Shown: positions 29,187 to 50,961, numbered from the stretch's first letter. The stretch: DNA of 64,000 nucleotides from Bacteroidota bacterium (GCA_037130365.1 JBAXTE010000022.1:3116-67115); one strand, 5' to 3'. A program made the numbers and translations. The notes: generated by a model from the letters alone, not told the origin.

Positions 29187-29187
29187 A

Positions 29188-31566: not shown

Positions 31567-31574
31567 CAAATTTA
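31567..31574 (-). promoter_or_regulatory. TAAATTTG promoter element for the toxin-HTH-AlbA-hsdR unit
   Basis: TAnnTTTG consensus 17 nt upstream of the toxin start. Confidence 0.6.
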
Positions 31575-31726
31575 GGACTTATTTTTTATTAACCAAATAT
31601 TTCTGTATTAATTTTGTCAATTACTTTTAATTGAAGAATGTAAAAGTACAAATCATTGTTATTTTTATATAAGAATATTTCTTCTATTGCTGATTCAAAT
31701 GTTTGTTTTTCTTATATGAATTAATT

Positions 31727-32782: not shown

Positions 32783-32794
32783 AAATCATAGTGT

Positions 32795-33106
32795 TTAAAT
32801 TTCTTTAGACTTTTTTATTTCATCTTCCAATTCTCTTATTTGCTTTCTTAGCGTTGTAATTTCTGGATTTGGAAATCTGTGATTTGGTCTTAACTTAATT
32901 GTTACCTTATGCGTATTTGTTGTTCCAGCACCAATTGTTCCATTGAAAATAACTACTTTGATCCCTCCACCAACTTTCTCAAATTCACTAACATTTATTT
33001 CAAGATTAACTTCGTCTATTTTATAATTCTTTTTGTTCTCGTAAAATTTACTTCTTGCTGTTTCAATTTCTTCAAGAGTATATCCAATTAATTCATTTAG
33101 TTCCAT
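32795..33106 (-). CDS. Trypco2-like small protein
   Basis: EVNLEINV...GGGIKVVIFNG.IG..NTHKVTIKLRP matches the Trypco2 pattern as recalled. Confidence 0.6.
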   Translation of the reverse strand: MELNELIGYTLEEIETARSKFYENKKNYKIDEVNLEINVSEFEKVGGGIKVVIFNGTIGAGTTNTHKVTIKLRPNHRFPNPEITTLRKQIRELEDEIKKSKEI

Positions 33107-33112
33107 AAAAAA

Positions 33113-34456
33113 TCAATATTTATTGTTATTATATCTAACATCTACTTTCCCCGTTACCACCTCACTGATTAATGCCGTTTTGTATTCTTTCAATAGGTCG
33201 ATTTCTTGTTGAGTGTTTGAAATGATTTCATTTATCTTTTGTGACTCAACTTTTATAAAATCATTAATATCTTTTTGTTCCTCAATAGATGGGTTTGGAC
33301 ATTTTAATTTTTTTAATATATCTTGGCTTACATTTGGTTGTCCACCACCTTTTGACAAATTAACAATATGTTCTTTATTAGATTTGAACCAGTTAAATAA
33401 AAATTCATCTGTTATTTGACTAGAACCATAAAAAACACAACAAGCTTGATTCATTGTTGTTTCGCATTTGACAATACTTGTTTTTCCAATTGTTGCTCCA
33501 TACATTGCTATAACAACAGACTCCGCTGGAAATAATTTTAGTGCAGAATAATCTTCAATAGCTTTTGGGGTTATTTTCTTAGAAGTTTGATAAAGATAGT
33601 CATCATTTAAATCCCCAGTGTTTAACCAATTAATTGTGCCATTCTCATGATAAATTGGGTTGCCCGATTCTGGAGTCGTTCCACTCCCAACAAGTTGATA
33701 TGCATGACCTAATTTCCAAACCTCCCAATGCTCCGGTATCTCCCCAAGCCATTCAATCCCCGAATCCTTCATTTTTACATTCGGGTTCAGCCCTTTAGTA
33801 ACGGCTTGGTTAATCATGGCGGTGCGTTCTTCGTGCAGCAACTCTATCAAACGTTGCTTCTTGCCAATTAGGTCGTCAATTTGGGTGGTTTTTTTGTCGA
33901 GGTAGTTGGCAATGGCGGTTTGTTCTTGAATTGGAGGCAACAATACTTTGTATTCACCACATGCTTCTTGAGAAATTCCGAAAAATGTAGTTCCAGTTTT
34001 AGTCAGCTCAACATGGTTATAGAAGTAATCTGTTTGTAGCTGATAATAAATAAATCTTGTATAATATTCATCTCTTAGCGGTCTAAACACCAATAAATGA
34101 CTATTTAAGGATGCTTTACCTGGCAAGTCATTAACAAAAAGTAATTTCCCAATTGTTCCATCTTTTGTCATTAGAACATCACCTTCTTTTAATTGAATTT
34201 CTGGGGCTTCATCATATCTTTCATTAGTAATATGATAAACTTCATCCCATCTTATTTTGCCATCTTTAAAATTCATTCCAGTTATTAAATATGGTAAATC
34301 TTTATTTTCTAAAAATTCAGATTGTTTTAAACCTTGCCATCCAATCCGACCTTTCATATATGAAACTCTTTTGAATTTATTCAAAGACCAATTAGAAGGT
34401 ATTTCATTTAAACAATTTGATTGTATCTTATTATATGAATCGTATTTTTTCATCAT
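33113..34456 (-). CDS. hsdS: Type I RM specificity subunit (two TRDs)
   Basis: PPIQEQTAIANYLD...AVTKGLNPNVKMKDSGIEWLGEIPEHW central repeat; PSIEEQ...ALISEVVTGKVDV; ATG at 34456. Confidence 0.95.
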   Translation of the reverse strand: MMKKYDSYNKIQSNCLNEIPSNWSLNKFKRVSYMKGRIGWQGLKQSEFLENKDLPYLITGMNFKDGKIRWDEVYHITNERYDEAPEIQLKEGDVLMTKDGTIGKLLFVNDLPGKASLNSHLLVFRPLRDEYYTRFIYYQLQTDYFYNHVELTKTGTTFFGISQEACGEYKVLLPPIQEQTAIANYLDKKTTQIDDLIGKKQRLIELLHEERTAMINQAVTKGLNPNVKMKDSGIEWLGEIPEHWEVWKLGHAYQLVGSGTTPESGNPIYHENGTINWLNTGDLNDDYLYQTSKKITPKAIEDYSALKLFPAESVVIAMYGATIGKTSIVKCETTMNQACCVFYGSSQITDEFLFNWFKSNKEHIVNLSKGGGQPNVSQDILKKLKCPNPSIEEQKDINDFIKVESQKINEIISNTQQEIDLLKEYKTALISEVVTGKVDVRYNNNKY

Positions 34457-34457
34457 T

Positions 34458-36176
34458 TTACCCAATCACTTCCTTTATTAATCCATCGGTTTCTTGTTCC
34501 AAAGCAAAAATATCAGCACGTATTTCTTCCAAACTGCGGAGTGGTTTATATTGGTAAAAGTATTTGGTAAAGTTAATTTCGTATCCAATATTGGTTTTGG
34601 TTTCATCTGCCCAAGCGTCATTCACGTGTGGCAACACTTCACGCTTAATGTAATCGTGTATGTTCTCTATCAATGGAATGTTTTCAGTATCACGTAAGCT
34701 GCAATCGGGTTTTGGTTTACCGTTTTTATCCTTCACAATTTCTCCTTTGGCATTGCGCTCTGGGCGTTCAATAGTTACTTTGGCATAACCAAACTCTTTG
34801 TTGTCAAATATCTTGCAGTATTCGTTGGCTTTAAATTCGCCATACATTTTGGTGATTTCTTCAATATGTTGTTCGCTTAGTTCATTACGTTTATCGCCCA
34901 GCGATTTACTCATTTTTTTGAAGAAATCTACCGCATTTATTAATTGAACTTTTCCTTTGCGTTGGTTGGGTTTGTTATTCGATATTATCCAAATATAGGT
35001 GCTAATGCCTGTATTGTAAAATAGCTGATTTGGCAATGCAATAATGGCTTCCAGTAAGTCGTTTTCGATAACCCATTGGCGAATACTGCTTTCGTTTTTT
35101 GTTTTACTAGGTGAACCCGAAAACAATGGCGAACCATTAAAAACTATTGCCAATCGAGAACCTTCCGATTTCATTTTGCTCATTAGTTGCATTAAAAACA
35201 AAAACGAACCATCGCTCATAGAGGGCAATCCAGCTCCAAAACGTCCACCATGCCCAAGTTGTTCGTGTTCTTCTTTTACTTTTTTACCAAACTTTTCCCA
35301 TTTAACGCCAAATGGTGGATTTGTAATTAAATAATCGAATTTCTGGTTACTTAATTGGTCTTCGGAAATACTATTTCCCTTTTTTATATTGGTTGGGTTT
35401 TGTCCTTTAATCATTAAATCCGACTTGCAAATGGCATAGGATTCTGGGTTGAGTTCTTGCCCGAATACTTCCAAACGTGCATCGGGATTGAGTTCGTTAA
35501 GATATTCTTCGGCTACCGATAACATTCCTCCTGTACCTGCACAGCAATCGTAAATGGTTTTTGTAATTCCTTTTTTGGTTAGAATTTCTCTATCGTTTAA
35601 AAATAATATGTTTACCATTAGCCTAATAACTTCTCTTGGAGTGAAGTGTTCTCCAGCGGTTTCGTTTGATATTTCGGCAAATTTACGAATCAACTCTTCA
35701 AACATATATCCCATTTCCATGCTTGAAATTTTATCGGGATGTAAGTCAACTTCCTGGAACCTTTTCACTATCATAAATAGCAAATTGGCTTCATCCAGTT
35801 TTGTAATTTGATTTTCAAATTCAAATTGTTCAATTACTTCACGAGCATCGTCAGAAAAGCCGTTTATGTAATTTCTGAGGTTGGCTGCTAAGTTATTTGG
35901 GTCAGCTATTAGCTTATTGAAATCGAATTTGCTACGATTGTGAAAGTTATATCCAGCCGCTTTATTCAAAATTGGGTCAAGGTTTTCGATATTCATCGCT
36001 TTTGCTTGCTCAAATTTAGCTAAAACAGTTTCTTTGGTGGGTTCTAGCACACAATCTAATCTGCGTAATACGGTAAGGGGTAAAACCACTTTTCCGTAAT
36101 CGCTTTGTTTATAATCACCCCTTAATAGGTCGGCAATTGACCAAATAAAGTTAGCAGATTCTTTTACGTTTTTCAT
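34458..36176 (-). CDS. hsdM: Type I RM m6A methyltransferase
   Basis: GEHFTPREVI, YDCCAGTGGML, NPPF motif IV; ATG at 36176; TACATTTG promoter at 36259-36266. Confidence 0.96.
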   Translation of the reverse strand: MKNVKESANFIWSIADLLRGDYKQSDYGKVVLPLTVLRRLDCVLEPTKETVLAKFEQAKAMNIENLDPILNKAAGYNFHNRSKFDFNKLIADPNNLAANLRNYINGFSDDAREVIEQFEFENQITKLDEANLLFMIVKRFQEVDLHPDKISSMEMGYMFEELIRKFAEISNETAGEHFTPREVIRLMVNILFLNDREILTKKGITKTIYDCCAGTGGMLSVAEEYLNELNPDARLEVFGQELNPESYAICKSDLMIKGQNPTNIKKGNSISEDQLSNQKFDYLITNPPFGVKWEKFGKKVKEEHEQLGHGGRFGAGLPSMSDGSFLFLMQLMSKMKSEGSRLAIVFNGSPLFSGSPSKTKNESSIRQWVIENDLLEAIIALPNQLFYNTGISTYIWIISNNKPNQRKGKVQLINAVDFFKKMSKSLGDKRNELSEQHIEEITKMYGEFKANEYCKIFDNKEFGYAKVTIERPERNAKGEIVKDKNGKPKPDCSLRDTENIPLIENIHDYIKREVLPHVNDAWADETKTNIGYEINFTKYFYQYKPLRSLEEIRADIFALEQETDGLIKEVIG

Positions 36177-36571
36177 ATCTAATTTGTATTCTTTTAGCTC
36201 TGGTGTCAATAGAGATGTGGCATTAACGTGTTCACATCTGATATTCATAATTAATGTACAAATGTAAGGAATAAAATAAATTATATACAGAAAATAATAA
36301 ATGAATTTCGAAACTGATAAAGTGTATTTTTAATGATGATTTCACTGAAGTCACGTAAACAAATATGGAATTGTTTTGATAATTGAGGATTTCAATAATG
36401 AAGGATTATTTTGGATAAAACTGTAATGAAAAACATATAGGTAATTCATTTAATATAATTGATTTAATAGCTAAATAAAGCGATTTGCGGAGCTTTCTTT
36501 GAGTTGAAAATGGGAACCTTGGGTTGTTGTGTTTTCAATTGCCTTAAATCAATTAATTCTCACATCTTCTA

Positions 36572-38119: not shown

Positions 38120-38149
38120 TTAGTTGTTCTATTTTACAATAATGTTTAT

Positions 38150-38223
38150 CGTATATTACTCTGTATAATTTCGGAATAAAACCAGTCACTCTGCTATTGT
38201 GTCAAACTGCTGCTATGTGAAGT
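38150..38223 (-). repeat. attC-like cassette repeat, copy A
   Basis: Minus strand cacatagcagcagtttgacacaatagcagagtg overlaps the stop of 38213..38659 and resembles copy E (gtttggcacaatagcaaggtgg). Confidence 0.5.
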
Positions 38224-38659
38224 ATTTTTGTTCGGTTTGTCTGTATATTTTATCTAATTTGTATAATGTTAAAAAATTGACTGACCAATATACTACAAAA
38301 GCAATAGTGCCAGTCAATGAAATCATAAAAAGTTCAATAAGTCCAAGACGTGTTTCCCCAAAAACTAATCCGAAAAGCAATCCAAAAAGAATACATTGAA
38401 TACCTGTTAATTGAATAAGTGTCAAACCCCAAACATTTCGATGTTTAGAAAATTTATTCCATAACGGAATTATCATAGTAAATTGAATTAGCAATGCAAG
38501 AATTGTCAAAGATGGAACAAACCAATTTAAAAAACCATTGTCTGGTAAAAAAAAAGCATCACCTTCATTTTTTATCAAATTAAATATTACCAGAAGCCCA
38601 AGAACTGTTAAAACACCAAATAATGTTGGTAATATTGTTTTAATCATTTTCGTTTTCAT
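38213..38659 (-). CDS. Hypothetical 4-TM membrane protein
   Basis: 148-aa ORF with four hydrophobic segments. Confidence 0.7.
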   Translation of the reverse strand: MKTKMIKTILPTLFGVLTVLGLLVIFNLIKNEGDAFFLPDNGFLNWFVPSLTILALLIQFTMIIPLWNKFSKHRNVWGLTLIQLTGIQCILFGLLFGLVFGETRLGLIELFMISLTGTIAFVVYWSVNFLTLYKLDKIYRQTEQKYFT

Positions 38660-38768
38660 ATTTTAACTAATTTAATTTTTTAAACGAAAATTATATTAAG
38701 ATATTTTTAAAAGCATTTAAAACTTTTGTTAAAAAATGATACTAGAATCTAACTTCAATAAGGAAAAA

Positions 38769-39665
38769 TTATAAATTTCTGATTGCTCCATTCAAATATT
38801 GATAAGTTTTTGCACCATTTTTTGTAATAAATGTAATTGGATTTCCATTTGATTTACTTATAACAATAGCATCATTAAAAGGCTCAATTGCCATAATTGA
38901 ATTCAAAGTAATCGTTGAGCTTTTTTCATTACTTTTAAAAAGAACTCTATTTGTTGTAATATTAATAACTCCTTTACCTCTTGATATTTTTTTAATTTCT
39001 TTTTCCATTCCAACATTGTAACTTCCTAAATTATAGCTCAATCCTTTTGCTATTTTAATCCTAACACTTGGTCCACCATAATTAATTCTTTTAGTTACTT
39101 GTCTTTGCTCTATAAGTTCAACATTTTCTTCTCGATATATGCATTGTTCATTTTTCTGCAAAATAAAATCTGAATTCAAGTTTGGAAATATTCCTTTGTC
39201 TAACTCCCAATTTGTTACGTAATATTCAAATTTATTCTTAATCTTTTCTGAAGTGTCATATTCACTTACTTTTAAATCCTTACTATATTCAATAATACTT
39301 TGAATTTCATCGGGATCTAAGGCATCATCATTATTGATTTTTTCAAAAATCATTGATTCAATCATGTCCTTATTAACTAAGGATAAAATTTCATCATTCG
39401 ATTCATTTGGAAACAAGTTTGAAAAAAAATCTAAATAGGAATTACCTAAAGTTTTAACATTTTCATAATTAATTTTCGTAGAATATCCTTGAATAATTCT
39501 TTTTTTAACAGCATTATAATCTTCATTATTAGACCATTCTTGTCTATTATTTATTAAATATTCTAAGTCTTTCTGATTGTCTGGAAAAGTACGAATTGCA
39601 TTGTTTAATTTGTTTATCAATTTTATGGCTTTTCCCCAGCCTTTAAACCAATTTATTATTCCCAT
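38769..39665 (-). CDS. Hypothetical protein: helical N-terminus with a TerB-like DDALDPDE motif and a PH-like beta C-terminus
   Basis: GVINITTNRVLFKS...TITLNSIMAIE pattern; ATG at 39665. Confidence 0.55.
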   Translation of the reverse strand: MGIINWFKGWGKAIKLINKLNNAIRTFPDNQKDLEYLINNRQEWSNNEDYNAVKKRIIQGYSTKINYENVKTLGNSYLDFFSNLFPNESNDEILSLVNKDMIESMIFEKINNDDALDPDEIQSIIEYSKDLKVSEYDTSEKIKNKFEYYVTNWELDKGIFPNLNSDFILQKNEQCIYREENVELIEQRQVTKRINYGGPSVRIKIAKGLSYNLGSYNVGMEKEIKKISRGKGVINITTNRVLFKSNEKSSTITLNSIMAIEPFNDAIVISKSNGNPITFITKNGAKTYQYLNGAIRNL

Positions 39666-39734
39666 AGTTTTATTTTTTAATAGTTTTTCAATATAATACG
39701 GGTATACAAAAATATACCACATAAGGTTTGTTTA

Positions 39735-39835
39735 ACTTATTGCTAAAGGATGCAAATTTGGGCAATAGTTTACAAAATAATACTTACATTTTAAATTTCC
39801 ACCAAAGTTAATTAATCTTGTTTAACATTCAAAAC
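39735..39835 (-). repeat. attC-like cassette repeat, copy B (degenerate)
   Basis: caccaaagttaattaatcttgtttaacattc (39800-39830) matches copy D at 25/31; minus-strand end tattgcccaaatttgcatcctttagc parallels tactgcacaaagtcgcctccgttata. Confidence 0.5.
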
Positions 39836-39930
39836 TTGTATAATACTTTAACATCAAATAGAATTTGTTTTTTTCTAAAATACAACTATTCGTTAAACAA
39901 TAAATTTTAGTTTTCAAATATCATATTTGG

Positions 39931-40045
39931 AGTTTTGTAGTTCAAAGATATATGTAATTTTTTAGAATTACATATATTAATTACTTTTGTTGAACTTTCA
40001 AAACCCGCCACAACACTCTTGCACTATGTCGTTGTTATTCAAAGG
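39931..40045 (-). repeat. attC-like cassette repeat, copy C
   Basis: Shares tttcaaaacccgccac with copy E; hairpin with perfect 12-bp arms atatatgtaatt/aattacatatat and outer arms agttttgtagttcaa/ttgaactttcaaaac; overlaps the stop of 39998..40855. Confidence 0.6.
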
Positions 40046-40855
40046 TATAATATTACTTTTCTTTTCAGAATTACTATTAACTTGAAAAATTTTGTTATTC
40101 AAGGAATCGATTTTAATTGTTATATTATCCTTAAATTGCAAATCAAAAATACTCTTATTAAGAGTGGCTGGAACTAGAAGTTTAAACTCATTCAAATTAG
40201 TAACTTTAATATCGGAAATTTCTTTTTTCAAAAATAATGTTGATGCTATTACAAGAATTGTCATTATACCAAATCCAATATTGCCAATTTTGAAACACCT
40301 AGCTCCATAAATTAAATTATCACCCTTTATGTTGTCAATTGGCGTTGTGTTATTTATGATATAAATCAAATCTTCAATTTCTGAATTTACGAAATCGAGT
40401 TCTATTTCCTTTCTTTCTTTCTTTGTAATTGAAATAGTGCTTCGACTAGGATACTTATATTTGTCTACAGTCAATGTTTTAATTGCGTGAAGAATTGACA
40501 AAAGATAATGTAATAGAACAATTAAAAACAAAAAGGACAAGGGTAATTTAAGCCATAAACTAACTCCGCTTAGATTATTTATTAATAATGGAATAAATAA
40601 TGCAAATATAGAGGTGACAATACTTGCTTGACCAACTAACTGTGAATTTTTATTTTCTATAGTAGTTCTTCTGTCTCTTTGATAATCGTGAATTTCCTTA
40701 AGATATGTCAAATATCTATCTGCAACTTTAATCTCTTTAGAATGACAATATATTTCTTTAATGTCTGATGTTTTATCAGTTTTTAACTCTTCTGATTTTA
40801 AAGTTTGAAATGACCTTTTTATTAGACCAATATATATTAGATATTGCTTTATCAT
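39998..40855 (-). CDS. 3-TM membrane protein resembling Pycsar (PycTM)-type effectors
   Basis: RRTTIENKNSQLVG leads into TM1, then TM2 ending LLSILHAIKTL, a soluble linker with IINN..IDNIK, and TM3; similarity judged by eye. Confidence 0.55.
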   Translation of the reverse strand: MIKQYLIYIGLIKRSFQTLKSEELKTDKTSDIKEIYCHSKEIKVADRYLTYLKEIHDYQRDRRTTIENKNSQLVGQASIVTSIFALFIPLLINNLSGVSLWLKLPLSFLFLIVLLHYLLSILHAIKTLTVDKYKYPSRSTISITKKERKEIELDFVNSEIEDLIYIINNTTPIDNIKGDNLIYGARCFKIGNIGFGIMTILVIASTLFLKKEISDIKVTNLNEFKLLVPATLNKSIFDLQFKDNITIKIDSLNNKIFQVNSNSEKKSNIIPLNNNDIVQECCGGF

Positions 40856-41778
40856 ATGATTTCAGTTAAATAGTTAATAATTTCATCTGATATTTTTAGA
40901 CCTGTTTCCATTTCAATCCAAGCCCATTGCCCATTTGGATTGATTTCTAAAAAAATGTAATTGCCATTTTTATCTCTTACTAAATCTATTGCTCCAAATG
41001 AGATATTGAGTTTTTTGGTTAATTGAATACATTTTTGTTCGATTTCAATAGGTAGATTATATTTCAAAAATGGATTTTTTTCTTTTCTCCAATCTGTTAT
41101 AGTATTTTTATTTTCCTGAGAGTTAACTTTGGCTGAAAATACTTTATCCCCAACAATAGTAATTCTTAACTCATAATCCTTTAAAATATTATTTTGAATT
41201 ATGCAAGGTGTTAAATCATAATGTAATATATTATCAATGACCGTTTTATCTATTTGATTGGTAAAAATAGTTTTAACCCCATCTTCAAGGTTAATTCTCC
41301 CTTGTCTAATTGGTTTAATTATTACATCTTCATTATTAAGTATGATAAAATCTTTTAATTCTTTATGATTATTTGCTACTATCGTTTCTGGGACATTAAA
41401 CCCTAAGCTTTTAGCTAGCTTTAATTGATAAATTTTATTTTCCGCTTTATATACAAAACTTGGATGACTAAGCCATCTTTTAGAGTCTATCAATATGAAA
41501 GCATTGTCAAACAATGTTTCATAGTCGCCTAAAAGAAATAATTGTTGTCCTTTATTAGAAGTTTCTATTTCTGGAAGTTTAGTTCTTCTGAACCAAACCG
41601 AATTAAACTCGGCAATCCCATTTATTGAAAATTTAAAATCTGAAGAATTAGTAAAGGAATAGTTGTATTTATTGATGTCTTCACAATTCAATCTAAAATA
41701 CTTGATATCTCTTTCATTCAGCTTTTCAATAACAAAGTCAGCTGTAAAATCTTGCTTGTGAGTTATAATTAATATCAT
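40852..41778 (-). CDS. ATP-grasp ribosomal peptide maturase (MvdC/MvdD-like graspetide synthetase)
   Basis: ILIITHKQDFTADFV, SVWFRR, ENKIYQL..AKSLGFNVPETIV, IIKPI, YELRITIVG, DWR, FGAIDL, FLEINPNGQW. Confidence 0.92.
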   Translation of the reverse strand: MILIITHKQDFTADFVIEKLNERDIKYFRLNCEDINKYNYSFTNSSDFKFSINGIAEFNSVWFRRTKLPEIETSNKGQQLFLLGDYETLFDNAFILIDSKRWLSHPSFVYKAENKIYQLKLAKSLGFNVPETIVANNHKELKDFIILNNEDVIIKPIRQGRINLEDGVKTIFTNQIDKTVIDNILHYDLTPCIIQNNILKDYELRITIVGDKVFSAKVNSQENKNTITDWRKEKNPFLKYNLPIEIEQKCIQLTKKLNISFGAIDLVRDKNGNYIFLEINPNGQWAWIEMETGLKISDEIINYLTEII

Positions 41779-42122
41779 TTGTCTGAATCTGTTCCTTCTA
41801 CTGATTCTGTAATGGTTTGGGTGTCCATTAAAAGCTTGAATATTTTTAAGTCATTGTCACTATCACTTGGTTCAGCTAAGGTTAGCGTTTCCGTGCTTGT
41901 ATCTAAAAGCTGTCTTAAATTGAATTTATAATCATTATCTGAATCACTTGATTCTCCTGAACTTTTAGTATAAGTTTCGGTATCCAAGGAAACGTATTTA
42001 ATTGCTGGCATTTCAGTATCTTTAATAACAGATAGGTTTTGTTTTTGGGAATATTCGATCAGAGAAAAATTCAAATTTTTCAAAATAGGATTTTCAGTAA
42101 ATTCTAAAATTAATGGTTTCAT
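41775..42122 (-). CDS. Graspetide (omega-ester peptide) precursor with three core repeats
   Basis: Leader MKPLILEFTE...; cores DTETYTKSSGESSDSDND, DTSTETLTLAEPSDSDND, DTQTITESVEGTDSDK; ATGA overlap with the ligase. Confidence 0.88.
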   Translation of the reverse strand: MKPLILEFTENPILKNLNFSLIEYSQKQNLSVIKDTEMPAIKYVSLDTETYTKSSGESSDSDNDYKFNLRQLLDTSTETLTLAEPSDSDNDLKIFKLLMDTQTITESVEGTDSDK

Positions 42123-42163
42123 AATTTGTGATTTTTTTTAAATATGTAATTTCTTTTTTCATG

Positions 42164-42303
42164 CTTGTATATAACGGAGGCGACTTTGTGCAGTAGCGGA
42201 GTCTATTCCGTTTTGTACTCACTGTACACCAAAATTAATTAATTATTTCAAACATTCCAAATATGCCAACTTGCTATTTCAAGTAAACTGATGTATTAGT
42301 CCG
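42164..42303 (-). repeat. attC-like cassette repeat, copy D
   Basis: Shares cggaggc(g/a)actttg, accaaaattaattaattatttcaa and cttgctatt with copy E; ends gttatatacaag on the minus strand just before the precursor gene. Confidence 0.65.
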
Positions 42304-42409
42304 TGACATCTTATCCCCCCAGTATTATATTCAATTTACTTTATCATTTCTATCGGATTAGTATGCACTTTGGCTGGTTTTGGTCATGCGTTGGCTTTTG
42401 TGCAACCAG

Positions 42410-43585
42410 TTACAAAGTAACGAGACTAATTTCATTACTAAAAAACCGGTTGACGTAATCGAATGGAATTTTCTCTTGTTCTAGTCGCCAATTATTTGAT
42501 TTTAAAATATTATATAGTTCTTGTTCACTTTGAGTCAAATTTAATTTTGCACTTATGTTCGTTGGGGTTCCCAAATCATGTTCGAAGAATTTCTCAAAGG
42601 TTACAAGATCCATTAAGATACTTTTTGTCTCCTGAAAATACCCCCTAAATTGAGATAAAATTTCAAAACCTTGCACATCAATGTCACCCCAATAAAGCAA
42701 TTCAATATTTTCAAACCACTTTACATTTTTTAAATTAGCAACACTGTAACCACTCCCGAATATTGCAATTGTCTTTTCCATTTTAGGAAGTGTTAAAAAT
42801 GTAGTTACTGAATAAAGTGTTGTTTTATTTTCTACCACCAACACTTTATTTATTGGTATGTTTAATGTTTCAAATTGACTTACGGGAATTGCCAAATCAT
42901 CAATACCTGAAAAATAAATTTGACTGATTTCTTTATCAAGTATTTTGAATCGTATTTGTGGTTCGCTGTATTTTAGGTTAAACCTTTTTTCAAATTGTTT
43001 TTCATTATTATTGAGATGTTCCAAGATAAGAACATCAAGCAAATCTTTTATTACAACTTGCTTTCTTTCAATGAATTTAGTGTGTACATTTATCGGTAAT
43101 TCTCTGATATATAAATTTGGTTTAGGATTTTGTCTGAAATATTGGCACACATTTAAAATACTTTCCCATTCAGCTTGGTTCTGGATGACTTTTATAGAGT
43201 TTTTAATCACCCATTCATGCAATTCGGGAAATTTTTTAAGTATTCGTTCAACGCTTAATAGGTACAATTCAACTTCATTGTCCTTTCCCAAAAATCTCAA
43301 AAAATCCCTTTTTGTATCAAAATAAATTGAGGTAGGCAAATCTTGCATTCCTAATGACTTTGTTTTTACTTGTTGAAATTCCAATGTGTAGCCAAATCCT
43401 TTTATCTCTTTGGATTGACTAATAATTTGTTGAATTTCATTCTCAAATTCGGATAATGATGATTTCGAGTAAGATTTATCACCACGAATTACGAGTTTCT
43501 CAAAAGGTTTGTTTTCAACTAAAGTTTGAAGAAAAGAAATATATTTTCTTTCGGCTTTGTCTTTTATTTCTTTGGGCGTAATCAT
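42410..43585 (-). CDS. jetD: Wadjet nuclease subunit (DUF3322 + DUF2220 Toprim)
   Basis: LVVENK, YWGDIDVQG, RLEQEKIP. Confidence 0.92.
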   Translation of the reverse strand: MITPKEIKDKAERKYISFLQTLVENKPFEKLVIRGDKSYSKSSLSEFENEIQQIISQSKEIKGFGYTLEFQQVKTKSLGMQDLPTSIYFDTKRDFLRFLGKDNEVELYLLSVERILKKFPELHEWVIKNSIKVIQNQAEWESILNVCQYFRQNPKPNLYIRELPINVHTKFIERKQVVIKDLLDVLILEHLNNNEKQFEKRFNLKYSEPQIRFKILDKEISQIYFSGIDDLAIPVSQFETLNIPINKVLVVENKTTLYSVTTFLTLPKMEKTIAIFGSGYSVANLKNVKWFENIELLYWGDIDVQGFEILSQFRGYFQETKSILMDLVTFEKFFEHDLGTPTNISAKLNLTQSEQELYNILKSNNWRLEQEKIPFDYVNRFFSNEISLVTL

Positions 43586-46500
43586 TGTTTCAGGTAGTTT
43601 GCTTTTTCTACTTTGAATTGTTCAATAGGCATATCATACAGCCAAGAATGTCTTTCCTCTTTGCGTTCTACAAAATGAACAAACGAAATATCGTTTTCTA
43701 CAATGTGAATATTGTCGCTTGGAGTAACAACCAACAACTGCAAATGAAGTTGTTTGCATAACGTAATTAAATAACGTGCTTTGTCCTCGTCTTGTGCTTT
43801 AAATGCTTCGTCAATGGCAATAAATCGAAATGAGTTAGTTTGTAAACCTACTTTTGTTAAACCAAATTGATAGGCTATTGCTGAACCTAAAATAGTGTAA
43901 GTAAGTTGAGCCTTTTCGCCTCCAGAAAGCTGTCCCATATTTTCATAAGTTTTAAACTTCTGATTGTTTTCTTTGTAAAACTCTTCGGCTTTATAGCTGA
44001 ACCAAGAACGAACATCCATAACTTTCTTGCGCCATTCTTCTTTGTCTAATTTTGTAATTAGTGGCTCAATGTGATTGTAAAAATGATTTTTTCGTCCGTC
44101 AATTGAAGCATTAACTTCTCTGATATTGGGAATTGCTTTTTCCAAAAGATTTCTGAACTCTTTTACCTCATCGCTTATTTTATTGGGTGCCACAAGTTGA
44201 ATGTATGTTTGAGGCTTATTTTTAAAATCTATTTCTTTCAAAGAATCATTCAAATGTTTTATGTTATCTTTGATTGAATCCGACCAGTGCTCAAAAAACA
44301 TTCTGAAATCGCCAACTTTGTTTGTTATAGTTTCATGCAAATAATCGTTGAACTTCTTTTCAAATTTAGGAAGATTGTCTTTTTCTAATCTGTCTAAAAA
44401 CTTTTGATACTCACCGAGAAATTCTAAATGGGTTGATTCAGGAAGAGAACTCACATCAGAACGCCAATCTTTGAATTTGTATGTGATTTCTTCTGAAGGC
44501 TGTTTAAAGGTGTTTATTTTAATTATTACTTCTCTTTCACTTTGTTGTTTTTGATTTCTAAGTTCTATTTCTTTTCTTGATAATTCCTTTTGAAAATTGG
44601 TTTGTGTAGTCTTGATGTTTAAGAAATCCGTATTTAGAATTTCAAGGTTGGTCTTTTCAAACTCAGCAATGTTAGCAAATCCCGTAATCTCAACTACCTT
44701 CTTATCTGCATCTATTACTCTTTCAATATCTTCAATATCTTTTTTCTTTTTAAAAATATCTTGACTTTTATTGAAAATATCAACTTCCGATAGTTGTTTT
44801 AAATTTTTTTGGACTTTGTTTAATTGTTCTTGTAATTTCTTAACTCGGTCATTAGTTTTTTCTAAATCAGATTTCTGCTTTTCTTTTTCAAGAATTTCTT
44901 TGGCGTAGGTTTGCCAATTTATGTCATCGTACTTTCCAAACATAGAAAACAAATTGTGAGCATTATCTCTATTATCTTCCAATTTTTTTAATGTTCCATT
45001 TTCTTTATTGGTAATTGTAGAAATCAATTTTAGATTTTCTTTTTGAAGTTCTTGTTGTTTTTTCAGTTCTTCTTTTAAACCAGCAATTTTTTCTTTGTTG
45101 TCCCAACCTAAAACATAATTTTCCTTTTTTGAAACGTGAACACGGTCGTCTTTTTCGTGCTTACCTCTTTTGAATTTTATCAAACCGTTTTGAGTGATTG
45201 CCATTTCAGAATAACGCTCAAACTCTGAAAGATTATCTACACAAACAAAGTCAAACTGGTTTTGTAAAGAATCCTCAATCCATTCGTAATATTGCGTTTT
45301 GGACTTTACGTTAATTTTATTGACTATGGATTTTTCGTTTGCAGTTTTGTTCTGAAAATTTTTGAGATAATTTTCTTCATATCTATCATAACGGATTCTA
45401 CCTCTTAAATTATTGCTGTTTACATACTCATTTACTTTGGAGTAATATTTGGGCGGAACAATCAATCGCAAAGCAAAATTGTGAAGCACTTTTTCAATTG
45501 AAGATTCCCAATTAATTTCTTCTTCTTTTACTTTAATTAGCTCGCCAATGAATGGAATTTCTTCCTTGCTAGCTCCAATGTGGTCAATAATTTCATCTCG
45601 TATTTCCGCTTCTCGTCCAGCGATATTGTTTTTGTTTTTTTGAAGAGTTTGAATTGTGATTACTAATTCTTCTGTTGATTTTATTAATTCATCATCTTTG
45701 TTTTTCAAAGCACGGAGATTTTCACCTTCTTCATCAATTCTTTGTTGTGTGCTTTGTTTTATTTGTTTTGCTTTTTCTCGATTCGCAATAAAAGTTTCTT
45801 CACTTGGATCTGTTTTTAAATCAATACTTTGAGCAATTTTATTGTAATCATCTAACTTTTTACTTTTATTTTCTTTCAAGCCTTGAAGATTTTTAATTTC
45901 CTTTTCTAAATCTTTGATTTTACCACCAACTTCATCTTTTTCAATAGAAATGGAAATTGCTCTTTCTTCTTGTTTCAATATTTCTTCTTTGCCTCGTAAT
46001 TCTGTTAATTCATCATTAAGACGTTGTATTTCTTCCTTACATTTTTCTAATTCCTTTTCTCCTAATTCAACACTTTTTTTAGCAAACCAAAAAACAGCGG
46101 TTTCTTTTGAATTTTCTAATCGCTCTATATCAACTTGGATATTTGTTAGCGTTATTGCAATTTCATTGATTGGCATTAGCTGTTTGATTTGTTCTTTGGC
46201 TTTTTCAATGTTGGTTTTAGCATCCATTAAAGTCAAAAAACTTTCTTTCAGTTGAACAAATTCTGGTTCAGCGTCCAACTCTTCCAACATATTTGTTCTT
46301 ATAAACTCGTCTAAATCTTCCAAAACTTTTACCCCAACTACTTGATTAAATAGACTTAACGCTTTAATGGAACGCATTCCAAACAAATTGGACATTCTCT
46401 CGGCATATGCCATAGGACCCTCTATGAATTCTATTTTCTTTTTAGTTGTATTTGAGTTATATGTTTTATCTAACCTTTTTTTCCACATTCCCTTTGAATC

Positions 46501-46998
46501 GAAATCACGAAAATCTTTCTCTATTTCAAGCGGTATATGAGCAATGCCATATTGCCTATTTAATTCACCATTACTATTAAACCAACGAACTTGAAATAAT
46601 GTAACCTGTTTTGAATCTGTATTTTTAAAATGAGCTAGAATAACAGAATAGGTATTTTTTTCTCTCAGCTTTTGCGTAGAAGTAGAACTTTTACCCTCTT
46701 CTTGGATATTTCCATAATGTCCCAAAACATAGGTTTCTTCAGTACGATTACCTTTCTTATCAATACCGGATGATTGATTGTAAAACCTGTCTTTCTTTGC
46801 AGGAACCATTAATGTGAGTAAAGCATCTATGTATGTGCTTTTCCCTGATGCATTCGCTCCAGTCAATAAGGAATTATTCCCGCTAGGATTAATTCTGAAT
46901 ACTTTTTCGTCAAATGTTCCCCAATTGTAAACCTCCATATATTGAAGTCTAAAACCCACTTTGTCGGAACTTGTACTAAATAGACTCAACATATTCAT
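43582..46998 (-). CDS. jetC: Wadjet SMC ATPase
   Basis: YNWGTFD, GANASGKST, long coiled coils, LSGGEK, IAIDEAF. Confidence 0.94.
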   Translation of the reverse strand: MNMLSLFSTSSDKVGFRLQYMEVYNWGTFDEKVFRINPSGNNSLLTGANASGKSTYIDALLTLMVPAKKDRFYNQSSGIDKKGNRTEETYVLGHYGNIQEEGKSSTSTQKLREKNTYSVILAHFKNTDSKQVTLFQVRWFNSNGELNRQYGIAHIPLEIEKDFRDFDSKGMWKKRLDKTYNSNTTKKKIEFIEGPMAYAERMSNLFGMRSIKALSLFNQVVGVKVLEDLDEFIRTNMLEELDAEPEFVQLKESFLTLMDAKTNIEKAKEQIKQLMPINEIAITLTNIQVDIERLENSKETAVFWFAKKSVELGEKELEKCKEEIQRLNDELTELRGKEEILKQEERAISISIEKDEVGGKIKDLEKEIKNLQGLKENKSKKLDDYNKIAQSIDLKTDPSEETFIANREKAKQIKQSTQQRIDEEGENLRALKNKDDELIKSTEELVITIQTLQKNKNNIAGREAEIRDEIIDHIGASKEEIPFIGELIKVKEEEINWESSIEKVLHNFALRLIVPPKYYSKVNEYVNSNNLRGRIRYDRYEENYLKNFQNKTANEKSIVNKINVKSKTQYYEWIEDSLQNQFDFVCVDNLSEFERYSEMAITQNGLIKFKRGKHEKDDRVHVSKKENYVLGWDNKEKIAGLKEELKKQQELQKENLKLISTITNKENGTLKKLEDNRDNAHNLFSMFGKYDDINWQTYAKEILEKEKQKSDLEKTNDRVKKLQEQLNKVQKNLKQLSEVDIFNKSQDIFKKKKDIEDIERVIDADKKVVEITGFANIAEFEKTNLEILNTDFLNIKTTQTNFQKELSRKEIELRNQKQQSEREVIIKINTFKQPSEEITYKFKDWRSDVSSLPESTHLEFLGEYQKFLDRLEKDNLPKFEKKFNDYLHETITNKVGDFRMFFEHWSDSIKDNIKHLNDSLKEIDFKNKPQTYIQLVAPNKISDEVKEFRNLLEKAIPNIREVNASIDGRKNHFYNHIEPLITKLDKEEWRKKVMDVRSWFSYKAEEFYKENNQKFKTYENMGQLSGGEKAQLTYTILGSAIAYQFGLTKVGLQTNSFRFIAIDEAFKAQDEDKARYLITLCKQLHLQLLVVTPSDNIHIVENDISFVHFVERKEERHSWLYDMPIEQFKVEKANYLKQ

Positions 46999-47554
46999 GC
47001 AATCTTGTTTTGAAATCCTGTAATATATCCAGTGTTATTTTTTCTTTTATAATTCGGTGTATCTGATATTTCGTTTCGTTTTCTTTTTTTATAATTTCTT
47101 TTAAATAGCCCAAATCAGCAGCACTATTGATATATTTGTCAAGTTCTTTGATGAATTTTACTCTATTGAATCTTTCAGGAAGAAATAATTCTAATTCGTC
47201 TTTTATCTCAGTATTTGTAATGAATTTTTCTGTTGCTAACTGTGTTGGATTACTATCAAATTCTTCCAAACTTTGTCTTAGTACAACAAGCACTATTGAC
47301 GTTTCAAAACCAATCTGTCGTCTTTGAATCATACCAAGAGTATTACCTTCGCTATCTTCAAATTGTTTAACAAAAGCAAAGCCTTCATCTTTTTTTACGA
47401 TTAGTTCCAAACCAATTAGGCTGATGTATTCCTGAATCTCGTTTTGATAATTAATTACATCTTCCCAAACAATTGAGTTCCTCTCAACAGTTGATTTGAG
47501 TAATCTTACTATTGCTTTACTGTATGGTTTTATATTTTTCTCTAAATTATTCAT
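46976..47554 (-). CDS. jetB: Wadjet KITE subunit (DUF4194)
   Basis: IGLELIVKKDEGFAFVKQ...LRQSLEEFD; position between jetA and jetC. Confidence 0.9.
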   Translation of the reverse strand: MNNLEKNIKPYSKAIVRLLKSTVERNSIVWEDVINYQNEIQEYISLIGLELIVKKDEGFAFVKQFEDSEGNTLGMIQRRQIGFETSIVLVVLRQSLEEFDSNPTQLATEKFITNTEIKDELELFLPERFNRVKFIKELDKYINSAADLGYLKEIIKKENETKYQIHRIIKEKITLDILQDFKTRLHEYVESI

Positions 47555-49011
47555 TTGGTCAAAATTATTTCTGGAATTCTAATTTGTTTTCTGTTTTCAA
47601 TATCAAACACGATACTTTGAGTTTTTTCAGGGTTTATGAAGTGTTTAAACTCTTTTACAATACCAATGTATCCGAATAATTCAGGCAGCCCCTTATCAAG
47701 TCCACCGTAATTTTCAACCACATCTAAAAGTGTAGTTTGTGATTTTTCTTTGAGTATATCTTTAATTCTTTTCCGAATTAACTCTTTATCAATGTTTGAT
47801 TGAGAAAACAATCTTAATAAGTGGTTTGACGAAGTGATATCTTCGTTTGCAATTTTTGGCTTGTTTTTGTAAATAACTTCTTCGCTTTTTTCATTCGTCA
47901 ATCTGCGTTCAAACGGAATATTGATTTCGATTTCGGTTTGCAGTTCAAATGATATTTCAGTTTTCTTTTTTGTCTTACTAATTTCTATGAGTTGTTTTTT
48001 TATTCCCTGAATTATATTTTTCGTTGCTTCCGATTTTGAACTCTCGTTTTCACGAATAATACGGCTTAGTTTTTCAGCCATTTTATCATTGGCTTTATAT
48101 ACCTTTTGTCCAGCACTGTGAAGATGTCTTTTCATTCCTTTCAGAAATAGGTCATTTACAGGAATTGATTTTTCTTCCAAAGTCTTGTACAATTCATTTG
48201 TTAGACTTTCCCATTTGTTTTGCAAATCGGGATTTAGAATAAACGACCAAAAAGCGTAAAAACTTTTACCTTGCTGACTATCTTTCAACTCTTCAAGAGC
48301 GTCAAAAGTAAATTCCAAAATATCGCTTTTGCTTAAACTTCCATCTGCGTGTTTTTGATAAATACCTTTCGTAATTTCTTTGAAATTGTCTTCGACTACT
48401 TTAAAGTCCGACAACAATTCCTTAGCAGATTGATTTATTTGATTGAAACGTGGAACAATTTCAAATTCTTCAAAAACTTTTACATCTTCGCCCGTTTTTA
48501 TTCGTTGAATTTGTTGTTCAATTTCTAATTTTCTTTCTTCTAAAAGTTGAATACGTTTTTCAGCATCTTCGTTAGTATTCTCAACTAACTCTTTCAACTG
48601 ATTTAATATGTTATTGAATTTTGATTCTGTACCAACAAATTCTTCTTTTTTCAAACTTGCTAACCAATCAATAGTTTTACTTGAATGAGCTGAAAGTTCA
48701 TAAAAAACCTCACCCTGTTCGTCATGATAATTGGTTAAGAAACCCTTGTTTGTCCAACTTTGTATATATTTTTTAGCTTTTGTTTCATCGGTGTCAAAAA
48801 AATTGATTTCACTTTCCTCATCGTTTTCAATTTGTTTATTATCTAAATAGTCTGCCAGTAGAACTTGAATTTTCTCGGCTGATATTGCTCCTTGTTGATT
48901 TGAAAATGTATTTATTAGAAATACTATTATAGCCTCTCTATTTCTTAATTTAAGAAGTTCTATACCCGGAGAGTTATTTAGTATTTTTGCTATTTCTAAA
49001 CTATCTATCAT
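47551..49011 (-). CDS. jetA: Wadjet kleisin subunit (DUF3375)
   Basis: EEFVGTESKF, DFKVVEDNF, QGKSFYAFW; ATG at 49011; TAAGTTTG promoter at 49057-49064. Confidence 0.92.
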   Translation of the reverse strand: MIDSLEIAKILNNSPGIELLKLRNREAIIVFLINTFSNQQGAISAEKIQVLLADYLDNKQIENDEESEINFFDTDETKAKKYIQSWTNKGFLTNYHDEQGEVFYELSAHSSKTIDWLASLKKEEFVGTESKFNNILNQLKELVENTNEDAEKRIQLLEERKLEIEQQIQRIKTGEDVKVFEEFEIVPRFNQINQSAKELLSDFKVVEDNFKEITKGIYQKHADGSLSKSDILEFTFDALEELKDSQQGKSFYAFWSFILNPDLQNKWESLTNELYKTLEEKSIPVNDLFLKGMKRHLHSAGQKVYKANDKMAEKLSRIIRENESSKSEATKNIIQGIKKQLIEISKTKKKTEISFELQTEIEINIPFERRLTNEKSEEVIYKNKPKIANEDITSSNHLLRLFSQSNIDKELIRKRIKDILKEKSQTTLLDVVENYGGLDKGLPELFGYIGIVKEFKHFINPEKTQSIVFDIENRKQIRIPEIILTK

Positions 49012-49181
49012 TCTTTTACTTATTTTGAGAGTCGGCAAAAAAAATCTACTTTTTTGCAAACTTAGATTTTATGTCGGATTGAGCGGTTTGCAATTGTGCT
49101 GTTTCCTGCATTAGTCATTTATTAAACATTTTTTTCTGTCTTTTTGTAACAAATTTTCTATTTTTACTATATTGGATCACA

Positions 49182-49320
49182 CTTGACCTATCGGAGGCAA
49201 CTTTGAGTATTTGCAAATTAAATCACATTTTATTAAAATTGCATACCAAAATTAATTAATTATTTCAATCTTTCAAAACCCGCCACCTTGCTATTGTGCC
49301 AAACCACTTTTAATATTAGC
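49182..49320 (-). repeat. attC-like cassette repeat, copy E
   Basis: Begins 8 nt after the AlbA-gene stop; shares blocks with copies A, C and D. Confidence 0.65.
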
Positions 49321-49327
49321 TTTTTTA

Positions 49328-50506
49328 TCAAATTCTATTTATCGGACTGTTTGAATAGCCAACAGATTGCCATAAAATATCAAAATTAGGTTTCAGATGA
49401 GAATACAAATCAGTCTCGTATGTCGGTAGTATTATTGGAGGTAGAACAATTTCATCCGTCATAAATGTTCTACTGTAACCTCTATCCCCTTTTAGAGCTC
49501 CATCAAAGACACTGTGGATACTTAAACAAATTAAAAATGGCGGTTCTAATTGAAATTGCCTCAAAACGGTAAGTCCATTTTGAATTTTTTCAATAGTGAT
49601 TGGAATAAATTCATTTTCATATACACAATTTACTGTTTTGCCATTAAATTCTTTTTGATAAAAAAGTCGTGATGTGTATGCTTCATAAATTCCATTTCTG
49701 AAAATCTGGTCATAGCCATCTATTTTTTGCCTGTCTGAGGTTTTAGAAAAAGTTGCATATCCATCAAGGTTATACATACTATCCCACCCACTAGTAAATA
49801 GGGGTTTCATTGTGGTTTTGAGGTTCATACTTTCAGCATTTGTAAAATCAAGAGTTTCATCAGATAAAAAGCTGAAAGGAATTATTTGAATAAAAAATGA
49901 AGCAGTATTATCAAGAGTTGGAAAAACTTTTAGATTTCTAACTTTTTCTATTCTCTGAAGTCTAAATTTTTCTGCACTTACTTTTAAAACCTGATTTTGC
50001 ATAAACATATGATTAAGTTCATAAACATCAACAGCATATTTGCCACTATTTCTTCTTCTATAAAATTTATTTGTTTCGTTAAAAGTAATCATAGATGGGA
50101 GTCCTAGACCCTTTGAAATTCCAATTACTAATACAATTTGTTCGTCAACGTTGATGATTTTTATAGCAATATTCGAAATACTTGGTTCTGAATTGCCACG
50201 TATTATGTCTTCAATTTGTTGTATCAGTTTGTCCGAGTTATCAATTGTAATACCACATATTTTATTAGGTCTTCCTGTGTTCTGTCCTTTATCGTCTTTA
50301 CGCTCTTCTATACCAAAAATTAAGCACCCTCCTTCGGTATTATACATTGCAGAAATGTCGTATAAAAATTCTTTTTTGTCTTTGTCTTGTCCAATTTTAA
50401 GTTCTTTTTTATAGTCTAAAGACTTAGATTCTTGAACTTCATTTTTAACTAGACGTTTTATGTCTGTTTCGTCAAGTTGGTCTGTTCGTTTTCCTAAAAT
50501 ATACAT
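49328..50506 (-). CDS. Schlafen/AlbA_2 domain protein with uncharacterised C-terminal domain
   Basis: VQESKSLDYKKE...ISAMYNTEGGCLIFGIEE; preceded on the minus strand by cassette-start-like gttagcagtaac (50526-50537). Confidence 0.85.
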   Translation of the reverse strand: MYILGKRTDQLDETDIKRLVKNEVQESKSLDYKKELKIGQDKDKKEFLYDISAMYNTEGGCLIFGIEERKDDKGQNTGRPNKICGITIDNSDKLIQQIEDIIRGNSEPSISNIAIKIINVDEQIVLVIGISKGLGLPSMITFNETNKFYRRRNSGKYAVDVYELNHMFMQNQVLKVSAEKFRLQRIEKVRNLKVFPTLDNTASFFIQIIPFSFLSDETLDFTNAESMNLKTTMKPLFTSGWDSMYNLDGYATFSKTSDRQKIDGYDQIFRNGIYEAYTSRLFYQKEFNGKTVNCVYENEFIPITIEKIQNGLTVLRQFQLEPPFLICLSIHSVFDGALKGDRGYSRTFMTDEIVLPPIILPTYETDLYSHLKPNFDILWQSVGYSNSPINRI

Positions 50507-50961
50507 TTTTATTCTGTTTTTTTAAGTTACTGCTAACTAGCTATTATTCACAATATTATCCCAAATTATATAAATTCCACATTAATTATTATAAAATCAA
50601 CACCTAATGTTCAGTAATTATAATAACCATAAAGAAAGGATACTTTGGAACAACAGCAAATCTATAAAAGCAATGTCATTGAACTAAAATTAAGGCTATA
50701 TATTGGGTTAATTGACATGTGGAAAAGAACGGTGGAAAGTTGATATTGCAAATTTAGGAAATTATTTATATAATTCACGTTAATAAAATATTTTTCAAAA
50801 AAACGAGACTACAGCATTTGTGGAAAGAGAGCTATTGATAGTCTGGGACTTATCTTTATATTCTAAATGCGCTGTCGTTTTGTTTTACAAATGGAACTTT
50901 GTCGAAATGTAACTCTTTTATTGGAACAATATGCACCCTTTTTGCTTATTTGAAATGAAAA

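Follow-up and report, generated by a model that had tools for sequence, protein, structure and literature searches.

Integrons are defined by the integrase IntI, the superintegron of Vibrio cholerae being an example of the sedentary chromosomal integron (SCI), and Xer recombinases resolve chromosome dimers at a single 28-bp duplex dif site. Bacteroidota are usually said to have few integrons or none; reviews include the phylum among those that bear them, and another paper places it among the clades previously found without. Cargo rich in anti-phage defence has been reported for SCIs (bioRxiv 10.1101/2024.07.02.601686). The closest published relative of the system described here, compared by description, is rAID-1, in which a XerD-like recombinase is combined with co-directional low-GC genes and integron-like intergenic repeats (Ross et al. 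2019; bioRxiv 10.1101/471110). Clusters of rAID-1, whose name refers to recombinase-associated acquired interbacterial defence, were found in more than half of sequenced Bacteroidales; they were recognized by a XerD-like recombinase at the 5' end, with 44% identity or more to BF9343_RS08045 of B. fragilis, and by at least two co-directional low-G+C genes downstream, with interbacterial immunity genes as cargo (bioRxiv 10.1101/471110). Here we analysed a 64-kb stretch of a Bacteroidota bacterium (GCA_037130365.1, JBAXTE010000022.1:3116-67115; the whole stretch is called the window), whose 4.2-Mb source genome (G000) is assembled in 130 contigs and is 97.8% complete. Five co-oriented repeats lie between the genes of a defence island in this window, and we consider it likely that they are decayed recombination sites, analogues of attC, of an integron-like system for gene capture that occurs widely in Bacteroidota.

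The arrays formed by these repeats share with integrons, and with attC-site clusters that have no integron-integrase (CALINs), co-directional cassettes split by imperfect hairpin sites of ~130 nt with AAC...GTT cores. Further shared features are a crossover that would fall at G|TT, an R'' end of the site that is complementary to the start of the cassette to which it belongs, sites that are homogeneous within a lineage, an attI-like site (at the sequence level) beside a tyrosine recombinase, the occurrence of recombinase-less clusters, and defence-rich cargo. The arrays differ from integrons in their recombinase, which lacks the IntI insertion, scores below the cut-off of the integron-integrase model TIGR02249, carries an extra N-terminal double module of ~170 aa and is co-directional with the cassettes. 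They differ also in that clusters occupy many loci, sites have a predicted outward promoter of their own (in this genus) and multi-gene cassettes reach 4-7 kb. Because the IntI insertion was looked for and was absent, we do not file the system as an integron sensu stricto. Archaeal XerA has a catalytic domain like that of the recombinase found here (P0001), but P0001 adds an N-terminal domain, and many hairpin sites of ~135 nt bounding gene cassettes take the place of the XerCD dif site. The cargo of rAID-1 consists of orphan immunity genes of the type VI secretion system, whereas the window carries Wadjet, AlbA_2/Schlafen and an operon of the type that makes ribosomally synthesized and post-translationally modified peptides; moreover, the rAID-1 paper reports sequence motifs only, and not hairpin sites, a crossover point, a chain rule or attI. 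An earlier annotation of the window made from its DNA alone (the sequence-only reading) had regarded whole defence operons as cassettes in Bacteroidota as notable, which holds only in part, since rAID-1 had already described integron-like repeat arrays in Bacteroidales.

A genome-wide family of hairpin sites with chained flanks

The five related, co-oriented elements that the sequence-only reading had picked out were all recovered at the same places and on one strand by two model searches (below), and the shared blocks it had quoted proved real in a repeat search and in an alignment made by eye. The block GGCGGGTTTTGAAAG has 10 exact occurrences in the genome, and its extension exposed an element of ~135 nt genome-wide. 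A covariance model (CM R1) was built from 20 copies on other contigs, none of them in the window, and the window was scanned with it unfiltered. Exactly five significant matches were obtained, all on one strand, with E values from 1.8e-22 to 2.5e-4, and the next best match scored 13.8 bits (E 0.13; 128 kb searched). A hidden Markov model from 14 copies outside the window gave 47 genome matches with nhmmer, including exactly these five. The E values, the single strand and the gap to the next match place the similarity far above AT-rich background, as the covariance-model check proposed with the earlier reading had required, and the family was found in the genome and in relatives. The same figures (E 2e-22 to 2.5e-4 with a model from other contigs) already refute chance similarity in AT-rich intergenic DNA, to which the 29% G+C of the region and the 22 bits of the weakest copy might otherwise have pointed, and we give that explanation practically no weight.

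The family comprises about 45 copies, which are co-oriented within every contig and many of which lie at contig ends; clusters of sites are spread across many loci rather than forming one array. The element family was also found in 16 of 41 relatives. A scan of the recombinase-bearing C40 locus found no Rfam family for the element.

Intact sites are ~135 nt long and are bounded by TAAC (R'') and GTTA (R'). Their general form is 5'-nnnnTAAC-A-GCGGTTTGGC...variable or lineage-specific centre...GCCAAGCCGC-(3-6 nt)-GTTAnnnn-3', and the gene-strand form in this genome is ..nnnnTAAC-A-GCGGTTTGGCACAATAGCGGGG..centre..CCGCTACTGCGCAAAGCCGC-CTCC-GTTAnnnn... When folded as single-stranded DNA, the bottom strand of intact copies forms a long imperfect hairpin consisting of an R box (CTAAC/GTTAG), a spacer that is asymmetric and unpaired, an L stem of ~20 bp with single-base bulges, and a terminal part. 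This structure was taken from single-sequence DNA folds and then tested by pair counting: the R and L stems were 83% paired over 20 copies, compared with 35-49% when the partner was slid by 1-3 columns. In attC, the choice of strand is set by extrahelical bases in the L box; the predicted fold in this genus has one conserved single-C bulge per arm, and the same position in other lineages can instead be read as a T-G wobble or a C-A mismatch. In a cross-lineage alignment with distant genomes, both arms are conserved and the centre is variable. The intact copies of the genome thus have the layout of attC, with ..AAC/GTT.. cores, R and L boxes and a variable centre, and the modelled folds suggest that the folded single-stranded bottom form may be the substrate.

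Neighbouring copies are linked by a chain rule: the bases after the upstream GTTA are complementary to the bases before the next TAAC, while the two flanks of one and the same copy are unmatched. When the 8 nt that follow the upstream GTTA were compared with the 8 nt that precede the next TAAC, the latter reverse-complemented, 50 matches were obtained over 12 adjacent pairs (permutation p ~1e-5; null 2.29 per pair, own-to-own 2.23), and well-kept pairs reached 6, 7, 7, 5 and 5 of 8. Examples are GTTACCGCCAAG and GTTACCGCCAGG on contig C114, GTTATAGCCAAT and GTTATAGCCAAG on C72, and GTTAGCAAGC and GTTAGCAACC on C40. The rule extends to another genome, that of Flavobacterium terrisoli, where seven of nine neighbouring pairs follow it. 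Multi-gene cassettes with exact chains occur elsewhere in the source genome on C114 (a helix-turn-helix gene and a 1227-aa gene, 4.4 kb) and C99, and also on C72 (5.4 kb). This pattern is the signature of integron cassettes, the outcome of integron recombination at G|TT.

A selfish element resembling miniature inverted-repeat transposable elements or repetitive extragenic palindromes, inserted independently into intergenic DNA, would also be dispersed in many ~135-nt copies of inverted-repeat character, many of them at contig ends. Such insertions would not be expected to be co-oriented with the flanking genes, as all copies are within each contig, and no target-site duplications were found. 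In addition, the flanks chain as reverse complements between neighbours rather than forming a direct repeat around one copy, and the element is associated not with a transposase but with a tyrosine recombinase and an attI-like site. We therefore regard this origin as highly improbable. The genome-wide family with AAC...GTT cores, imperfect hairpins, co-orientation and chained flanks bears out the view of these repeats as cassette boundaries.

A separate repeat was noticed at contig ends. The same 54-nt sequence, beginning GAGTCGTCCTGAAAAATGTCTACACTAAAAGAAGTAG.., ends four contigs (C44:~54-1 on the minus strand, C111:5357-5410, C114:4761-4814 and C1:201436-201489), in three of which its start lies exactly 12 nt past an element's GTTA. 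It resembles an insertion sequence with these sites as its targets and recalls the IS1111-attC group; its body is absent from the assembly.

Recombinase, attI-like site and putative outward promoters

No reading frame in the source genome reaches the TIGR02249 cut-off or carries the IntI insertion. The best-scoring frame is an intact 452-aa protein, P0001, on contig C40, which obtained 212 bits (cut-off 265) in two stretches, and 208 bits on the archaeal XerA model NF040815. Compared with VchIntIA, ~40 residues are missing at the IntI insertion, residues 186-242 of VchIntIA having only 15 counterparts. The solved folds closest to P0001 are VchIntIA and then XerA (4a8e, 5hxy), with which its catalytic domain aligns end to end, and R309, K334, H399, R402, H425 and Y434 are invariant in the P0001 family. 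The extra N-terminal ~170 aa are predicted to form two beta-beta-alpha-beta-beta-alpha modules (pLDDT >80); a fold search with the whole P0001 model returned matches to the catalytic domain only, none of them informative on the N-terminal module. An integrase outside the window had been anticipated, and a recombinase does lie outside it, on C40, but it is not IntI; the search for an IntI-like gene elsewhere in the genome thus yielded the Xer/IntI-like P0001 instead of a canonical IntI.

On the coding strand of C40 (locus L017), P0001 is followed by an MNT gene, a truncated HepT gene and the junction ..catataaacta|GTTAGTGGC, after which come a NADAR-gene cassette and a short cassette, each followed by an element, and then a 326-aa cassette and the contig end. 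The attI-like motif at C40:2570 thus precedes two chained cassettes that run in the same direction as P0001. The MNT nucleotidyltransferase and HepT genes occupy 2569-3112 (-) of L017, between the recombinase and the attI-like junction; HepT is cut after ~37 profile positions, and its frame enters the junction palindrome (TATATGTCTGAC-GAA-GTCAGACATATA). The end of C40 (L017 1-54, +) weakly matches the model RF00029 for group II intron domain V/VI, its 23.7 bits falling short of the gathering score.

P0001 orthologues are widespread and are annotated only as XerD-like or tyrosine recombinases. In a set of 80 loci with genes for homologues, drawn from Bacteroidales, Prolixibacteraceae, Flavobacterium, Pedobacter, Crocinitomicaceae and Ignavibacteria, the CM found 46 elements, spread over 25 loci; all 46 ran in the same direction as the recombinase, and 45 were downstream of it. 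The order of recombinase and then array recurs in genomes G002, G003, G025, G027, G029 and G031, and many contigs end <1 kb after the recombinase gene, which fits the presence of repeats. At 12 of 21 loci, the R'' flank of the first site recurs as its reverse complement 70-127 nt 3' of the recombinase gene, in a conserved context, ..TATAnnCTA|GTTA.., that is preceded by repeats. On this sequence pattern, we take ..TATAnnCTA|GTTA.. to be a putative attI-like site chained to the first cassette. A locus in a better-assembled genome of the same genus (L043, G003:C5 428268-442786) has at least eight elements after a P0001-like gene; this gene contains an in-frame TGA, and a two-element part of the array is duplicated with identical scores.

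An ordinary CALIN with a canonical IntI that the draft does not include would be in keeping with an assembly of 130 contigs at 97.8% completeness; CALINs without IntI are common (PMC4889954), and integrons have been reported from Bacteroidota (PMC8618304). This explanation is nevertheless very unlikely, given that the genome has no frame at the IntI cut-off or with the insertion, that the gene directly upstream of the arrays in 25 loci elsewhere is the insertion-less recombinase, and that the first cassette there is chained to the attI-like site. Instead, the joint occurrence of recombinase, attI-like motif and array makes P0001 the probable catalyst at these sites.

In the mechanism that we propose for an integron-like gene-capture system, the Xer/IntI-like tyrosine recombinase (P0001 in this genome) most likely cleaves GTTA immediately after its G, so that a cassette would be [TTAnnnn-leader-gene(s)-site up to G]. 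Such a cassette could be excised as a circle, its R'' would then pair with its own 5' end, and it could re-insert either at another site or at the attI-like site, which lies ~100 nt downstream of the recombinase gene. The central promoter (TTTG-N19-TAnnTTTG) would transcribe the next cassette.

This promoter occupies the centre of the element, which is its most conserved part in this genus and reads TTTG-N19-TAATTTTG on the gene strand. We take TTTG-N19-TAnnTTTG to be the -33/-7 promoter consensus of Bacteroidota. The pattern TTTG-N18-21-TAnnTTTG has 419 matches in the genome, 18 of which fall inside 35 elements (0.3 expected), all 18 on the gene strand and none on the other. In the window, the full pattern is present in elements E (TTTG-N19-TAATTTTG, facing jetA), D (facing the graspetide operon) and B (TTTG-N19-TAACTTTG, facing the 317-aa gene), and four of the five copies preserve 25-26 of the 31 positions of the promoter segment, the arms being preserved at 0 to 27 of 30. 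Five of 20 intact copies have a palindromic insertion of 15-16 nt (CACGATAGCTATCGTG) in the centre, which breaks the -7 box (Table 1), and the promoter feature is absent from other lineages. These patterns suggest that the sites double as outward cassette promoters, and fossil sites may persist because they also serve in this way.

That the repeats are nothing but a promoter or leader module, duplicated before the operons of the island and with no role in recombination, would account for the perfect consensus in the centre on the gene strand, for the centre being the best conserved part of the window copies, and for the position of each copy upstream of a gene block. It would leave unexplained the arms, the hairpin, the TAAC/GTTA cores, the chain rule and the fixed place downstream of the recombinase in 25 loci. 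Other lineages keep the arms and vary the centre, and the 15-nt palindrome destroys the -7 box in five of 20 intact copies. A promoter module alone is thus an unlikely explanation, and recombination sites that may also carry a promoter fit these data better.

The fossil array and the patchy spread of its Wadjet operon

Every gene from 38 to 50.5 kb of the window is on the minus strand. In the direction of transcription, the array consists of a cassette-start junction, AlbA_2, element E, jetABCD, element D, the graspetide operon, elements C and B, the 317-aa and 4-TM genes, and element A (Table 1). Its G+C content is 29.2%, compared with 31.8% in the rest of the window. The five sites, if accepted as attC-type, form a CALIN, having at least two sites on one strand with no integrase nearby.

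Table 1 Features of the array, with its putative cassettes, in window coordinates, with palindrome-bearing copies of the source genome in the last row.
Feature	Position	Strand	Remarks
Cassette-start junction GTTAGCAGTAAC	50529..50540	-	22 nt 5' of AlbA_2 ATG; from sequence
Cassette 1: 392-aa Schlafen/AlbA_2 protein	49328..50506	-	PF04326, E 7e-14
Element E	49183..49317	-	Best-kept window copy; CM 76.5 bits, E 1.8e-22
Cassette 2: Wadjet operon jetABCD	42410..49059	-	Pfam
jetA	47551-49059	-	Wadjet Pfam families over jetABCD: DUF3375, DUF4194/MksE, SbcC/AAA_29, JetD_C
jetB	46976-47554	-	Wadjet operon
jetC	43582-46998	-	Wadjet operon
jetD	42410-43585	-	Wadjet operon
Element D	42166..42301	-	CM 60.5 bits, E 3.8e-17
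Cassette 3: graspetide-type operon	39998..42162	-	RimK/MvdD ATP-grasp
22-codon open reading frame (ORF), MKKEITYLKKITNYETINFRIY	42094-42162	-	13 nt after GTTA of element D
115-aa gene	41775-42122	-	Graspetide-type operon
ATP-grasp gene	40852-41778	-	RimK/MvdD ATP-grasp
285-aa membrane protein	39998-40855	-	Ends inside element C
Element C	39913..40042	-	CM 30.9 bits, E 2.7e-7
Element B	39738..39872	-	CM 43.6 bits, E 1.5e-11; 40 nt after C
Cassette 4: 317-aa and 148-aa genes	38213..39722	-	ORFs
317-aa gene	38769-39722	-	ORF
148-aa four-helix (4-TM) membrane gene	38213-38659	-	ORF
Element A	38141..38220	-	Truncated, 5' part only; CM 22 bits, E 2.5e-4
Palindrome-bearing copies	C98_103551, C39_1150, C72_9773, C107_344, C83_9811		G000

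The junction GTTAGCAGTAAC (50540-50529) is the start motif that had been noted before the AlbA gene, and it matches the cassette start GTTAGCAGTAAG on contig C93. The ..aatagcta that precedes it is closer to attI-type junctions (..aCTA|GTTA) than to attC-type junctions (..CC|GTTA). An unfiltered CM scan of the window found no sixth element upstream of AlbA, and no P0001-like gene or remnant was found in the window or upstream of the AlbA cassette start. AlbA_2 has no paralogue in the genome. Just 5' of the cassette start, the segment 50541-50680 (-) contains two direct repeats (ATAATAATTAATGTGGAAT / ATAATATTGTGAAT) and ends in ..AGCTA|GTTA. Two other tyrosine-recombinase-like frames in the window, 23451-24794 (+) and 61502-62077 (+), have weak tblastn matches to P0001 (23% and 21% identity, respectively); neither is a P0001-family protein, and both may be part of the surrounding island.

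Each window copy has a mutated or missing core or arm. Both cores of element E are changed, with TAAA for TAAC (49312-49309) and GATA for GTTA (49192-49189). Element D keeps its 3' arm and R' GTTA (42175-42172) intact together with the promoter-like centre, and its 5' arm has decayed (TAAT; segment identities 27/30, 10/30 and 25/31). Element C retains its 5' half, with R'' TAAC at 40037-40034 within the end of the 285-aa ORF, and in place of the 3' half stands an AT-rich perfect hairpin of 12 bp; nhmmer covers model positions 10-80 only. Element B retains its 3' half, with TTTA instead of GTTA as R' (39747-39744). In element A, R'' reads TAGC and overlaps the stop of the 4-TM gene, and nhmmer covers model positions 8-55. 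Given the damage to cores or arms in all copies and the lack of a recombinase, the array is probably immobile. The window array is best regarded as a fossil, recombinase-less, CALIN-like cluster inside a defence island.

The positions of the elements relative to genes agree with those of cassette boundaries. As had been observed, three elements begin at or overlap the stop of the preceding gene: the TGA of the 285-aa gene (40000-39998) and the TAG of the 4-TM gene (38215-38213) lie inside elements C and A, and the AlbA stop (49330-49328) abuts element E. The gttata-type end that had been seen before the presumed precursor gene is likewise present, as GTTATATACAAGC-ATG at the start (42162) of the 22-codon ORF, which overlaps the start of the 115-aa gene. 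The leaders after the R' position are 13 nt for the graspetide operon and 25 nt for the 317-aa gene. No element lies between the 317-aa and 148-aa genes of the fourth cassette, which have no Pfam family above threshold and no paralogues in the genome.

In the window, the Wadjet operon, like the graspetide operon, lies exactly between sites. Orthologues of jetD (74-77% identical) were found in only four other families of the order, and the Wadjet DNA has 80-82% nucleotide identity to four genomes, one per family, confined to window positions 49104-42365, a stretch that opens 45 nt before jetA and closes ~40 nt past jetD. The block is absent from ~395 other sampled genomes. This confinement of 80-82% identity to the operon, together with the patchy distribution, indicates recent horizontal spread of the block. 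In genomes G193 and G133, the CM locates an element directly 3' of jetD and on the expected strand; that of G193 has an intact hairpin (-31.9 kcal/mol, z -5.3) and the R box GGCGGTAAC/GTTACCGCC. By eye, a decayed copy resembling that of G193 follows jetD in G320, and a short copy follows it in G241. On the 5' side of jetA, a GATA/GTTA junction with similar words after it and unrelated sequence before it is present in the window, G320 and G241. The suggestion that Wadjet might itself be a cassette is therefore strengthened by its exact placement between sites and by the recurrence of an attC-like site after jetD in other families. AlbA and Wadjet as one conserved unit was considered and rejected, the 392-aa gene upstream of jetA in G133 being unrelated to the AlbA of the window. 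The graspetide operon is patchy as well, occurring in five of 401 genomes of the order.

Several observations weigh against reading the repeats as recombination sites and the gene blocks as cassettes. No window copy retains both cores and both arms, the two window copies that were folded (E and D) folded no better than shuffled sequences, and chain matches in the window are weak, with 4/8 for D to C (GTTAT plus 4/8) and 1/8 for B to A. Family-wide, compensatory changes in the R and L stems are few and covariation is modest, and RNAalifold alone, run on the 20 copies, gave almost no consensus structure. One recombinase locus, in G035, has a single element upstream of the recombinase in the opposite orientation. 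For the expectation that orthologues would have breakpoints at the repeats, the evidence is divided. Wadjet identity stops near the sites, but the similarity of the jetA leader up to the junction was not significant for pairs including the window in an alignment test, and the graspetide orthologues lack recognisable sites: the closest one (G091, 62% aa identity) has no recognisable site on either side, and the loci in G091, G278, G319 and G223 have no flanking elements with a lineage-specific model. An empty-site comparison yielded nothing, the flanking 316-aa gene being missing from 25 relatives. Moreover, jetD is followed in each host lineage by a site of the type proper to that lineage, so that the site and its 80%-identical cargo are not simply co-travelling or co-diverging; the same Wadjet cargo beside different host-type sites suggests that sites are added or homogenised locally.

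Cassette status is well shown for the intact arrays elsewhere in the genome. Since no window copy has both cores and both arms intact and the two that were folded did no better than shuffled sequences, in the window it follows from homology and position, which suggest that each gene block of the window entered as a cassette.

Directly downstream of the array, at 26169-36248, the same defence island holds a type I restriction-modification system (HsdR, HsdS, HsdM), within which there are a DUF3644 gene and a second Schlafen gene, of AlbA_2-HATPase type (29188-30747).

Gene capture in Bacteroidota

On balance, we lean towards the view that Bacteroidota, together with Ignavibacteria, have an integron lineage of their own, with an insertion-less Xer-like recombinase, a new tandem N-terminal module and promoter-capable sites, through which every cassette would be expressed at any position in an array; this lineage would move multi-gene defence systems such as the 7-kb Wadjet. 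Beyond the description of rAID-1, the chain rule and the attI-like site turn such arrays into a concrete and testable mechanism. Promoter-bearing sites would lift the limit that distance from the cassette promoter Pc sets on expression in classical integrons. The putative four-gene Wadjet cassette, shared across families beside sites of local type, is a natural experiment on cassette genesis, and local addition or homogenisation of sites, if true, bears on the unsolved origin of integron cassettes. For annotation, the intergenic repeats of the window should be understood as the fossil borders of cassettes, or as promoters, in a defence island. Because standard finders would reject this recombinase, a large reservoir of mobile defence genes in the phylum may be unannotated.

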